NCBI GenBank assembly: GCA_965215055.1
Contig: OZ244046.1
Coordinates: 548,233 to 612,232 of the forward strand
DNA length: 64,000 nt
DNA from: Gammaproteobacteria bacterium
GTDB taxonomy: Bacteria; Pseudomonadota; Gammaproteobacteria; UBA4575
Direction: 5' to 3'
The notes below the pieces were generated by a model. The model was not told the DNA's origin, made no database searches, and saw nothing but the letters and a program-made list of their open reading frames with translations. The translations under genes and the position numbers were made by a program. Shown in pieces: positions 1,980 to 7,768 of this stretch (its first letter is position 1; each line of letters opens with the position of its first letter).

Positions 1980-2045
1980 GTCTTATAACTCTCCGCCCAT
2001 TCCAATTACGCAGATAGCTGGAAGCTATATTAGAGCTCTAAAGAA

Positions 2046-2080
2046 AGGGAGGTGTTTCATTCAATATGAAACGCCTCCCT
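2046..2080 (-). terminator. Probable intrinsic terminator downstream of katG
   Basis: 15-bp inverted repeat AGGGAGGTGTTTCAT / ATGAAACGCCTCCCT (one wobble) with a 5-nt loop, followed by TTCTTT on the minus strand, 12 nt after the katG stop. Confidence 0.7.
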
Positions 2081-2092
2081 CATTTCTAATGA

Positions 2093-4300
<2,208 letters not shown>

Positions 4301-4328
4301 TTATTTCCATCAGGTCTTTTCGCCGTTA

Positions 4329-4406
4329 ATTTATACTGTATTTATACTGCACATGCATAAAATTTACTAATTTATTTTCTTGAATGTAATAATCGATTTT
4401 GCTAAT
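4329..4406 (-). promoter_or_regulatory. Putative katG promoter/operator: tandem ATTTATACTG repeats plus a degenerate LysR/OxyR-type site
   Basis: ATTTATACTG at 4329-4338 and 4340-4349 (reads CAGTATAAAT, -10-like, on the katG strand); 4370-4406 reads ATTA-N7-CGAT-N7-TTCA-N7-AAAT on the minus strand, a loose match to OxyR ATAG-N7-CTAT-N7-ATAG-N7-CTAT. Confidence 0.3.
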
Positions 4407-4521
4407 GGATGGGCAACTCGGAGAATTATTTAGAGATCGGAACAACTTAGCACCATTCTTTTACAGAGTGTAAAATTTGGAAAAGCAGTCAAAATGGATT
4501 CTTTCTTAGTAAGGGAAAAAT

Positions 4522-5881
4522 ATGGTCTCCGACGCTCGTATAGTAGTCCCCCCCCCCATGGAGTGGAAGCGGCCTCGACAGTAAAATTGCCGTCTTCGGG
4601 TTCCTCTTCCTGTGCCTCAACGTACTTCTCTTCGACTATCTTGTCGTTACCGACCCGTTAAAGCTCTTTAGGCTGGCTGTAGAAGACTCCTGGATAGAGA
4701 GTCTCACCGCGGTTTTTCTCCTCCTGGCAGGCCTGTTGTTATTTGCCATGGCTTGGGTGGAATCGAACCTCTTTCGGCGCTGCCTCTATATCCTCGGCGG
4801 TATCGCACTGGTATTCATTGCAGGCGAAGAAATCAGCTGGGGACAGCGTATATTTGAATTTACCACGCCTGAATTCTTGCGAGACTTGAATAGACAGAAC
4901 GAATTCAACGTTCACAATCTCCAAACTATTAGCTTCAAGCTGGTTGAAAAGGTCTTCCATCAAGCAATAATACTGTTGTGCACTGTAACCTGCGTCGCTT
5001 TCTTCTGCCGAAAACGCACTGTCCTCGGGATTCCAGTACCGTCAATACCACTGATGTTCGGATTCCTGATGATGATTGATTTCATGGCACCATATCATGG
5101 CACGGTTGGCTTGGAAGCTGTTCTTGGTTCGGGTTACACTCATAACAGCCAAAAGACCTTGCTTCTTCTCTTCGTCATCTATGCCTTGCTTTTCAGACAC
5201 ACCGGGTTGTTTATTGTCACGGTTGCAACCGCAACGCTCATCCTGGCTTCTGAGTTTATCTTCATGTCCAATCACCTGCGCAGATTATCAGAGTTGAAGG
5301 AGTATCTGTTCGGACTTGCCTGCCTTCTCTATTCTTTGGAGCTATGGTTGGCGCAGGGCGTTCAGGGACGGTTGGCGGCGATCTTTGGCCTAAAATGGCC
5401 GAACGTACGGGTCCCATCCTTGCTGACAACGTGCTCCCTGGTCATTGCAGGCAGTATCGGGTTAACGTTCTTCGAGTATTTCAGCGGCGCTCACCGGTCA
5501 GGTGATCACCGGTCAATTTACCAGTCCATCACGCAAGGTACGGTCGGTGAACCAGTCATCCGCTCCAACTTCGACGTCTATCTCATCGAAGACCGGTTAA
5601 TTTACTTCAAGGAGCCGTGCACGCCGGCGGATATCAAGCCCAAGTTCTTTTTGCATATTATCCCTGCTGACCTCCATGACCTTCCTGGCTACCGCAAGCG
5701 GCATGGTTTCGATAACCTGGACTTCGACTTTTATCGGCCCCATACAGACCATTGCATGAGGGCAATCCAGCTCCCGGATTACGACATCAACAGTGTCAGA
5801 ACCGGCCAGTACGTGCCAGGAGAGGGAAAGATATGGAACGAAGAGTTTACGCTTAACCCGAGTTTCCGGAACAGGCGTTGA
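4522..5881 (+). CDS. Polytopic membrane protein (EEISWGQR family) with soluble C-terminal domain, copy 1; frameshifted at a C10 tract as assembled
   Basis: ATG 4522 after AGGG; MVSDARIVV, then C10 (4548-4557). With C9 or C12 it reads into WSGSGLDSKIAVFG...EEISWGQRIF...EFNVHN...FFLHIIPAD...GFDNLDF...LPDYDINSVRTGQ. As given, the ATG frame stops after 20 aa and the ORF track only finds the TTG at 4736. Confidence 0.75.
4548..4557 (+). repeat. Poly-C tract (C10) in the 5' coding region of copy 1
   Basis: Counted directly: GTAGT-C10-ATGGAG. Confidence 0.9.
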
Positions 5882-5902
5882 CGTAAGTCATAGACAAGCC
5901 AC

Positions 5903-6079
5903 ATGGAACATGATAAGTGGAAACAGGGTTTTTTAATGTGCCTGGAAAAAGAACATAAAATTGAGCAGTTGTGGAAAAACAGGAGTTATGTCGTTTTGGG
6001 GGTGCTGTTTTACAATGAAACAAAGACCAGGCGAGATTTTGAAAGAGAAGATGCGGTTATCCTCGCAAAATATCTTTAG
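5903..6079 (+). pseudogene. C-terminal fragment of a type III restriction endonuclease (Res)
   Basis: Own translation MEHDKWKQGFLMCLEKEHKIEQLWKNRSYVVLGVLFYNETKTRRDFE..., resembling the D-x-WKE-x-FL...G-L-P-FYNE tail that follows the EPKG nuclease motif of type III Res proteins; not in the ORF track. Confidence 0.6.
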
Positions 6080-6140
6080 GTTGAACGTCCTGTCATAACC
6101 TCTTGTTGCAGCATCGGCAATCGTTAAAATGGTTACGACC

Positions 6141-6266
6141 ATGCAAAACTTACTGGAAGAATTAAAAGCTGCGTTTCAAAGTGATGAACGCCTAGTCATT
6201 GATGGAAAGCTGGCGAAAAACAAGATTATTGAATTGGTACTTGCGACGGATGGAAGCTTGTATTAG
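6141..6266 (+). pseudogene. N-terminal fragment of a type III R-M methyltransferase (Mod)
   Basis: Own translation MQNLLEELKAAFQSDERLVIDGKLAKNKIIELVLATDGSLY*, resembling the MQNLL..L...DERL..DG.L.KNKI.ELAL..D N-terminus of a type III Mod family; ends 4 nt before the copy 2 repeat starts. Confidence 0.65.
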
Positions 6267-6280
6267 GCAGAGGGAAAAGT

Positions 6281-7647
6281 ATGGTCTCCGATGCTCGTAT
6301 AGTAGTCCCCCCCCCCCCCCCCCCCCCCCCCCGTGGAGTGGAAGCGGCCTCGACAGCAAAATTGCCGTCTTCGGGTTCCTCTTCCTGTGCCTCAACGTAC
6401 TTCTCTTCGACTATCTTGCCGCTACTGACCCGTTAAAGCTCTTTAGGCTGGCTCACGAAGACTCCTGGATAGAGAGTCTCACCGTGGTTTTTCTCCTCCT
6501 GGCAGGCCTGTTGTTATTTGCCACGGCTTGGGTGGAATCGAACCTCTTTCGGCGCTGCCTCTATATCCTCGGCGGTATCGCAATGGTATTCATTGCAGGC
6601 GAAGAAATCAGCTGGGGACAGCGTATATTTGAATTTACCACGCCTGAATTCTTGCGAGGCCTGAATAGACAGGACGAATTCAACGTTCACAATGCTATTA
6701 ACTTGCCGTTGGTTAACAAGGTCTTCCATCAAGCAATCATGCTGTTGTGCGCTGTGACCTGCGTCGCTTTCTTCTGCCGAAAACGCACCGTCCTCGGGAT
6801 TCCAGTACCGTCAATACCGCTGATGTTCGGATTCCTGGTGACGATTGATTCCGTGACGCCATATCATGGCCCGGTTGGCTTGGAAGCTGTCCTCGCCCCG
6901 GGTTACCTTCTTAGCAGCCCAAAGACCCTGTTTCTCCTCTTTGTCATCTATGCCTTGCTTTTCAGACACACCAGGTTGTTTATTGTCACGGTTGCAACCG
7001 TGACGCTCACCCTGGCTTCTGAGTTTATCTTCATGTCCAATTACCTGCGCGGATTATCGGAGGTGAAGGAATATCTGTTCGGACTTGCCTACTTTCTCTA
7101 TTCTTTGGAGCTATGGTTGGCGCAGGGCGTTCAGGGGCGGTTGACGGCGATCTTTGGCCTGAAATGGCCGAATGTACGGGGCCCATCCTTGCTGACAACG
7201 TGCTCCCTGGTCATTGCAGGCAGTACCGGGTTAATGTTCTTCGAGTATTTCAGTAGCGCTCACCGGTCAATTTACCAGTCCATCACGCAAGGTACGGCCG
7301 GTGAACCAGTCGTCCGCTCCAACTTCGACGTCTATCTCATCGAAGACCGGTTAATTTACTTCAAGGAGCCGTGTACTCCGGCGGATACCAAGCCCGGGTT
7401 CTTTTTGCATATCATCCCTGCTGACCCCCATGACCTTCCTGGCTACCAAAAGCCGCATGGTTTCGATAACCTGGACTTCAAGTTTTATCGGCTCCATCCG
7501 GACCTCCGCCATTGCATGATGGCAATCCAGCTCCCGGATTACGACATCAACAGTGTCAAAACCGGTCAGTTCGTGCGAGGAGAGGGATGGATATGGAAAG
7601 AAGAGTTTACGCTTAACAGGCAAACTAAAGTAAAGCCCATTAAATGA
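6281..7647 (+). CDS. Polytopic membrane protein (EEISWGQR family) with soluble C-terminal domain, copy 2; frameshifted at a C26 tract as assembled
   Basis: ATG 6281 after AGAGGG, homologous to the copy 1 start; C26 (6307-6332) puts it out of frame with the gene body (C24 or C27 would restore it). The ORF-track start at TTG 6199 lies inside the Mod relic in another frame. Confidence 0.75.
6307..6332 (+). repeat. Poly-C tract (C26) in the 5' coding region of copy 2
   Basis: Counted directly: GTAGT-C26-GTGGAG; exact length may be unreliable. Confidence 0.85.
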
Positions 7648-7692
7648 CTTAAAAGGTGCCCGGGTAAGCTTATTAAAATCAATTATATATTA

Positions 7693-7768
7693 TGGTGGGT
7701 CGTATAGGATTCGAACCTATGACCATCGGGTTAAAAGCCCGGTGCTCTACCAACTGAGCTAACGACCC
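7693..7768 (-). tRNA. tRNA-Lys (anticodon TTT)
   Basis: Reverse complement GGGTCGTTAGCTCAGTTGGTAGAGCACCGGGCTTTTAACCCGATGGTCATAGGTTCGAATCCTATACGACCCACCA; 76 nt, cloverleaf, GTTCGAA T-loop, encoded CCA. Confidence 0.97.

Follow-up and report, generated by a model that had tools for sequence, protein, structure and literature searches.

Why would two adjacent genes for closely related membrane proteins both be separated from their start codons by a run of cytosines whose length leaves them out of frame? The question arises at positions 4522 to 7647 of the 64,000-nucleotide stretch analysed here (hereafter the window), part of the genome of an uncultured gammaproteobacterium, where two tandem paralogues each carry a poly-C tract between a short conserved leader and a long body. 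From comparison of sequences, we put the probability at roughly 0.7 that both genes are slipped-strand contingency loci, which would be turned on or off heritably by DNA slippage at the tract. We favor this reading because a tract occupies the same site in all six paralogues of the genome, because the 27 long tracts of the genome fall in classical gene classes, and because the tract site recurs across phyla, with mixed frame states and with bodies that are intact and appear to be selected.

Two genes headed by poly-C tracts

Both copies follow one plan, in which a ribosome-binding site and ATG precede a leader, a poly-C tract and a body. Direct reading of the sequence bears out this layout, which a preliminary description of the DNA had given. 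The features of the pair are:

4511..4516, forward strand: Shine-Dalgarno-like AAGGGA of copy 1, where homology between the copies starts
4522..4547, forward strand: start codon (ATG 4522-4524) and conserved leader of copy 1, ATG GTC TCC GAC GCT CGT ATA GTA GT
4541..4546, forward strand: TAG TAG in the body frame of copy 1, directly 5' of the tract, ruling out an upstream start in that frame
4548..4557, forward strand: poly-C tract of copy 1, C10, in frame only at a multiple of three
4522..4584, forward strand: out-of-frame product of copy 1 as assembled, 20 codons by codon reading, ending at TAA 4582-4584
4559..5881, forward strand: body of copy 1, 440 codons plus stop (5879-5881), a polytopic membrane part and then a C-terminal domain
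5522..5863, forward strand: C-terminal beta-sandwich domain of copy 1, about 114 amino acids, with two nearly invariant cysteines
6250..6252, forward strand: ATG in frame with the copy 2 body at C26; inspection by eye reveals no properly spaced Shine-Dalgarno motif 5' of it
6270..6275, forward strand: Shine-Dalgarno-like GAGGGA of copy 2
6281..6306, forward strand: start codon (ATG 6281-6283) and leader of copy 2, identical to copy 1 except that GAT replaces GAC
6307..6332, forward strand: poly-C tract of copy 2, C26, in frame only at a multiple of three
6281..6436, forward strand: out-of-frame open reading frame (ORF) of copy 2 as assembled, 51 amino acids, ending at 6434-6436
6334..7647, forward strand: body of copy 2, 437 codons plus stop (7645-7647), 85% identical in amino acids to copy 1

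The C10 is followed by A and the C26 by G, and in each copy TGGAGTGGAAGC comes next. Both tracts sit between codon 9 and the conserved body, and both exceed the minimum of eight G or C taken as long enough to slip. In either copy, the ATG and the body share a frame only when the number of C's is a multiple of three, as had been proposed, and as assembled the ATG frames close after 20 and 51 codons. Copy 1 has no alternative upstream start, a point confirmed by the TAG TAG at 4541-4546, and the first in-frame start behind these stops is TTG 4736. With respect to the conserved ATG both copies are off, as the preliminary description held, but copy 2 as assembled also has the in-frame ATG at 6250, to which this claim does not extend. 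The stored gene calls begin at TTG 4736 and at ~6199-6202 and miss the conserved starts; should switching be confirmed, annotators would have to expect systematic mis-calling of tract-headed genes. The concentration of such tracts in the window is far from random: C10 occurs at 18 overlapping positions, whereas 100 shuffles average 0.23 and never reach 18.

If the tracts switch, the mechanism would be as follows. Ahead of the tract, each copy is equipped with a separate ribosome-binding site, an ATG and eight more leader codons, and tract length would determine whether translation enters the 440- or 437-codon body or ends prematurely, after 20 or 51 codons. When replication adds or removes C's, each copy would thus be turned on or off, heritably and reversibly. 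In the on state, at a length divisible by three, the predicted product would begin with MVSDARIVV, continue with prolines (n/3 of them for n C's) and run on into WSGSGLDSK...; as assembled, both copies would be off relative to the conserved start.

A scan for promoters and terminators gave consensus-level matches only, including a promoter-like site at 4447-4476 before copy 1 and none before copy 2. The 400-base spacer between the copies holds a 58-codon ORF (window 5903-6079) that has no Pfam match.

Six paralogues and a genome-wide set of tracts

Is the pair an isolated oddity? The genome (G000) is a single contig of 1,679,647 bases with 49.3% G+C, and a tblastn search finds six full-length paralogues in it, every one with a tract at the same 5' site (C21, C10, C26 on the minus strand, C10, C26 and C20). 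The three with near-identical leaders have C10, C26 and C26. Only one of the six, a C10 gene at genome position 400157, is in frame with its proximal start.

The family is itself part of a larger set. The genome has 27 C/G runs of at least 10, namely three C10 runs and 24 runs of 13-29, with none of length 9, 11 or 12, whereas base composition predicts 2.1 runs of at least 10 and 0.03 of at least 13; A/T runs reach a maximum of 10. The long tracts, 24 where 0.03 are expected, are concentrated in envelope and defence genes. Bodies behind tracts match the Pfam families N6_N4_Mtase plus HNH (C17), N6_N4_Mtase plus Mrr_cat (C22), Glycos_transf_1 (C18) and Bac_transf (C17), and a GT4-type glycosyltransferase behind a C22 has weak Pfam matches, with only Glyco_trans_1_4 just over the cut-off. 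Several further tract-headed bodies, unnamed membrane proteins among them, have no Pfam match, and at least three of these end in the same C-terminal domain as the pair. The earlier picture of two independently switching alleles with four states is therefore too narrow: the pair is not self-contained but belongs to a six-member family and a genome-wide set. Together, six copies and about 20 other loci would generate a combinatorial repertoire of envelope and restriction functions, and random switching would present a varied envelope to phages or a host.

Further examples of tracts, at 5' gene ends or elsewhere, lie at genome positions 286332, 476509, 720561, 1048803 and 1657399, and runs at 1361655, 1481120 and 1655947 are intergenic.

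Are the bodies intact?

With five of six paralogues out of frame, these genes could instead be pseudogenes in decay, the frameshifted remains of a foreign gene that was duplicated, with the tract as the lesion. A true remnant does exist: at genome 404361-404387 (locus L053), beside two intact paralogues, a seventh copy of the leader with a C27 is followed by a frame of only 52 codons. Moreover, dN/dS (the ratio of nonsynonymous to synonymous substitution rates) is fairly high among the three close paralogues (0.58-0.71), as decay would predict; between the two subfamilies it is 0.26-0.30. The bodies themselves tell a different story. All six (434-453 codons) are free of internal stops, and copy 1 is separated from copy 2 by 110 substitutions and by four indels (6, 6, 6 and 15 bases), every indel a multiple of three. 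When 110 random substitutions were placed on copy 1, the frame stayed open in only 4.8% of 5000 simulations. The ribosome-binding site and leader are also conserved between the copies, and the disruption always falls at the tract and nowhere else. Because internal stops are absent and all four indels preserve frame, the bodies look selected and the genes otherwise intact, and we regard decay as very improbable.

The duplicated unit has clear limits. At the DNA level, copies 1 and 2 are homologous from a sharp boundary at the ribosome-binding site (AGGGAAAA) to a point near the stop codon; copy 2 and a third paralogue also have in common some 50 bases farther upstream that copy 1 does not have.

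Sister species and close relatives

Among 61 genomes searched with the copy 1 protein (P0001), only G000 and G004 contain full-length relatives, and the single copy in G004, at 42% identity, lies in a locus with no run of at least 8. The C-terminal domain alone is more widespread, matching 30 times in sister species G001 and 26 times in G004. In G001, these matches mostly fall at the ends of PMT_2-type proteins that begin with a poly-C run; in G004, tandem arrays of the domain lie inside open frames of 1761-1980 amino acids (G004:C1:1533619-1548895).

Long tracts are also common in some of these genomes. G001 has 34 runs of at least 13, G004 has six of 22-37 and G003 has three of 12-13, with none of at least 12 in G005 or G017. 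Among 30 tract loci examined in G001, 12 share a similar leader and an LDDYG body motif, and their runs have eight different lengths between C15 and C28. The LDDYG frames are ~660-800 amino acids long and end in the same C-terminal domain; all four that were tested match PMT_2 above the Pfam cut-off. Other G001 tract genes gave three matches to autotransporter or LapA models, only one of which exceeds the cut-off; of two autotransporter-like genes tested, one scored above it and one below. In these two species of the genus, an orthologous HsdM-like methylase, recognized by eye from its NPPYGKSW motif, contains a run at one shared internal position, which on the coding strand is G26 in G000 (1450520-1450545; L063:2521-2546, in frame) and C20 in G001 (L022:1501-1520).

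The first 150 residues of P0001 match a single protein of ~235 amino acids in most genomes of the bacterial family. In G000 this is a 237-residue protein (genome 715672-716052; L058:1885-2595, minus strand) whose similarity is limited to the first membrane segments and the GEE.SWGQ motif. Most genomes of the family have one copy of it, without a tract and without a Pfam match, and it may represent the core from which the membrane part arose.

The tract site recurs across phyla

A scan of one genome per species returned 594 relatives, the full-length ones at 34-60% identity. Full-length homologues occur in records of metagenome-assembled genomes (MAGs) from Nitrospirales, Dehalococcoidia, Pseudomonadales, other Gammaproteobacteria, Vicinamibacterales, Binatia and Spirochaetia, as well as Bryobacterales, Caldilineaceae, Gemmatimonadota, Latescibacteria, Thalassobaculaceae, Paracoccaceae and Azotimanducaceae, a mix of taxa that may recall sponge-associated consortia. 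We examined 32 loci (L069-L100), of which 26 were usable; in the six that were dropped (L075, L076, L082, L088, L090 and L100) the match did not start at the protein N-terminus.

A run of 9-21 C or G occupies the same 5' site in 15 of these 26 loci, as poly-C in ten and as poly-G in five, all five in Dehalococcoidia. Tabulating tract lengths in related genomes, a check that the preliminary description had proposed, reveals both frame states: an ATG is in frame through the tract at six of the 15 loci and out of frame at nine. In one Nitrospirales record, the tracts of two paralogues with identical flanks are C13 and C17. Ten of the genomes were counted for runs of at least 13 and have 27, 26, 5, 0, 1, 17, 19, 32, 11 and 8 of them.

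The remaining 11 loci have no tract of 9 or more, and every one has an in-frame ATG; those inspected encode a short proline run in mixed codons. Homologues with mixed CCN codons had been named in advance as a finding that would speak against a switch, and they do exist, but the 15 tract-bearing loci stand beside them. We read the run-less, mixed-codon genes as the probable ancestral state and not as a refutation. The use of different bases at one site, as in the G26 and C20 of the methylase and the poly-G and poly-C of the present family, may point to repeated birth of tracts from short runs of proline or glycine codons.

In the Dehalococcoidia MAGs (L079, L081 and L083 of OZ243978; L092 and L094), the poly-G tracts (G9-G19) encode glycine where other phyla have poly-C, and one Dehalococcoidia record holds four family copies in tandem.

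Tract lengths, assembly error and independent contigs

When the loci from other phyla are pooled with G000, seven of 21 tract-bearing genes are in frame, a share that differs from the run-less loci at p = 0.0004 (Fisher), although the pooled loci are kin and paralogues and the test overstates their independence. One third is also the share that random errors in homopolymer length would give, and this bears directly on an alternative in which the tracts are real and only their lengths are assembly artefacts. The true lengths would then be fixed and in frame (for example, C9 and C27), and the genes would be ordinary ones with a poly-proline N-terminal linker. Long homopolymers are a classic weak point of long-read consensus sequences, and tract-less homologues do have a short proline run at this place. 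Several observations argue otherwise. First, a C10 is short enough to be called reliably, and tracts of 10-13 in other records are likewise out of frame (L069 C13, L094 G10, L097 C12). Second, the affected genes belong to the classes found in known phasomes, that is, genome-wide sets of phase-variable genes. Finally, proline does not require pure runs of 20-29 C's, which would be hypermutable even with an in-frame consensus. We therefore consider a length-only artefact unlikely, but the exact values of 10 and 26 may be consensus errors, most plausibly the 26.

Contigs assembled independently bear on existence more than on length. All six public runs containing the stretch are available as contigs, not reads, and the comparison skips 6297-6343. 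Some records map up to 6296 and continue for 26 further letters, and in one run contig ends carry 10 extra C's before 4548, a loose end that may come from a paralogue. Contigs of other public runs thus reach into or stop at both tracts, which confirms that the tracts themselves exist. Apparent joints between 6084 and 6229 and between 6233 and 4522 were rejected as signs of rearrangement, because their letters match the region upstream of the third paralogue and probably reflect cross-mapping. In a metagenome contig collection, a search for the family (80 loci) returned distant relatives that match the membrane part only, none of them full-length.

Weighing heritable switching

The preliminary description had proposed phase-variable contingency loci. 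The paralogues, the genome-wide and cross-phylum context and the intact bodies strengthen that proposal. Besides the frame share and the kinship of the pooled loci noted above, several points count against switching. Contigs of four public runs end at or inside both tracts and yield no tract lengths, and among the metagenome contigs searched a 22-base leader pattern has no match. At C26, the body frame of copy 2 formally extends upstream as far as TTG 6199, a span that includes the ATG at 6250. MutS and MutL are intact, and slippage would therefore not be left unrepaired, unlike in phase-varying species that lack mismatch repair. On a tract as long as C26, RNA polymerase or ribosomes could slip as well and so blur any on or off state. 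Finally, the product has no family match in the databases searched that would indicate its function.

The possibility of blurring can be turned into an explanation of its own. RNA polymerase slippage, or frameshifting of tRNA-Pro on CCC-C, could restore the frame in a fraction of products, with tract length tuning the dose; such leaky read-through would be compatible with DNA slippage. Copy 1, at one more than a multiple of three, would need exactly a +1 shift, which is the direction that tRNA-Pro is known to take on CCC-C, and long homopolymers are established sites of transcriptional slippage. The gene for EF-P is present with an open frame, as are those for MutS and MutL. The tracts are also two to three times longer than DNA-level switches in Campylobacter need, judging from the PhasomeIt survey (PMC6321876). 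Against this, the RNA- or protein-level step is drawn by analogy, and C10 alleles in three families fall within the range of classical DNA-level switches. We consider leaky read-through without heritable switching improbable, and return to slipped-strand switching as the preferred reading.

A polytopic membrane protein with a shared C-terminal domain

What would be switched? The two products, P0001 and P0002, have no family match in Pfam, NCBIfam, PADLOC or PHROGs, and a search of the ESM Atlas gave a best score of 0.83, below a usable level. At E up to 1, a chance-level TrbC match is the only Pfam or NCBIfam hit. An alignment of 25 members nevertheless reveals, within the membrane part, acidic and polar motifs that are invariant (E-D before W.E..T, G-E-E-.-S-W-G-Q, F.TP.F and H-N) and a conserved C-terminal module whose two cysteines are invariant in these members and nearly invariant across 53 copies of the domain. 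A crude hydropathy count suggests about 8-10 membrane segments, with unreliable topology.

Structure prediction divides the protein in the same way. The full-length AlphaFold model has a pLDDT (predicted local distance difference test score) of 58 overall and of ~45 in the membrane part, and its structure-search matches were discarded as helical-hairpin look-alikes only. Folded alone with 53 sequences, the C-terminal domain reaches a pLDDT of 89.5 and forms a beta-sandwich with seven strands called. Its resemblance to known structures stays at background level, both by Foldseek (best E 0.019, template-modeling score about 0.4-0.46) and by fold comparison (best Z 6.8, root-mean-square deviation 3.1 over 87 residues); entries for FN3, CBM56, DUF3244 and GH2 Ig-like domains, at Z 5.7-6.6, share the common sandwich without pointing to a specific family. 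A profile of the domain has no match among Protein Data Bank sequences. Longer homologues repeat the domain two or three times (P0008, P0017).

The product is a polytopic membrane protein, probably of the inner membrane, and its beta-sandwich domain is probably periplasmic; the label of surface gene used in the preliminary description goes further than this. Its architecture, in which an outer-face beta-sandwich comes after a polytopic membrane part, resembles that of GT-C glycosyltransferases with sugar-binding C-terminal beta-sandwich modules (PMT_2/ArnT-like), and the domain is common to the PMT_2 proteins of G001. The likeness ends there, however: the membrane part of P0001 and P0002 matches neither PMT_2 nor any other GT-C model or Pfam family, its predicted fold has a low pLDDT, and only the C-terminal domain is shared. 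We infer a role in modifying or binding envelope glycans at the outer face of the inner membrane, because PMT_2 enzymes, which have outward-facing active sites, terminate in the same domain, because its cysteine pair is conserved and because longer homologues repeat it.

Relation to known phase-variable systems

Phase variation by homopolymer slippage is textbook knowledge for a few host-adapted pathogens. In Neisseria and Haemophilus, 5' coding homopolymers act as switches, among them the poly-G of the pilC signal-peptide region and the tracts of pglI/oafA-type acyltransferases. The present genes resemble these in having the tract just 3' of the start codon, in encoding an envelope-related membrane protein, in the presence of mismatch repair and in having paralogues, which switch independently there. 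They differ in tract length (~8-14 there) and in belonging to an unnamed, unrelated family, and switching there is shown by experiment whereas here it is proposed from sequence.

Campylobacter is the closer parallel in scale. Its tract set also gates genes for glycosylation, surface structures and restriction-modification, and it lacks MutS and MutL. In contrast, MutS and MutL are kept in the present genome, whose switch-bearing family is unnamed and spread across phyla and whose owner, an uncultured small-genome gammaproteobacterium, is not a known pathogen. According to the PhasomeIt survey cited above, which covers C. jejuni and relatives, the poly-G/C phasome has a median of 20 tracts per C. 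jejuni genome; tracts are mostly of length 9 (53%) or 10 (26%) and rarely 13-15, the majority fall within ORFs and set the reading frame by their length, and homologues occur with and without a tract (PMC6321876). The two sets of tracts are alike in packing many frame-setting G/C homopolymers into a small genome and in having homologues of both kinds, and unlike in tract length (24 of 27 tracts are 13-29 long here) and in strand.

The present case thus differs from the textbook ones in that its tracts are two to three times longer, mismatch repair is intact and an unnamed family carries the switch site in MAGs of several phyla. A literature search in an open library turned up nothing that describes phase variation at long G/C tracts in MAGs, in sulfur oxidisers, or in marine symbionts, those of sponges included. 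More broadly, the pair could be the tip of a community-wide trait, in which a horizontally exchanged envelope family carries a homopolymer switch site through at least six phyla of co-occurring uncultured bacteria, each genome independently maintaining tens of G/C tracts of 13-37 despite intact mismatch repair, as an ecosystem-level, convergent 'long-tract phasome' outside pathogens. We advance this broader idea tentatively and judge it rather less probable than its converse. If switching is real, it would offer a handle on envelope and restriction variation in uncultured symbiotic and environmental bacteria, probably directed against phages or a host, and would mark a large unnamed protein family and its domain as genes of envelope variation.

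Genomic setting of the pair

Three features describe the surroundings of the pair:

2016..7688, strand not applicable: segment with katG, copy 1 and copy 2, between acs and tRNA-Lys, absent from the sister species G001
2096-4288, reverse strand: katG, flanking the pair on one side
7693..7768, reverse strand: tRNA-Lys(ttt), bounding the inserted segment

In G001, acs directly adjoins tRNA-Lys; katG and the two copies (~2016-7688) are therefore, on this comparison of gene order, an insertion at the tRNA gene in the present species. In G+C content, the inserted segment is unremarkable. Beyond katG lies acs, and beyond tRNA-Lys follow queC, a radical-SAM gene, cpoB, pal and tolB.

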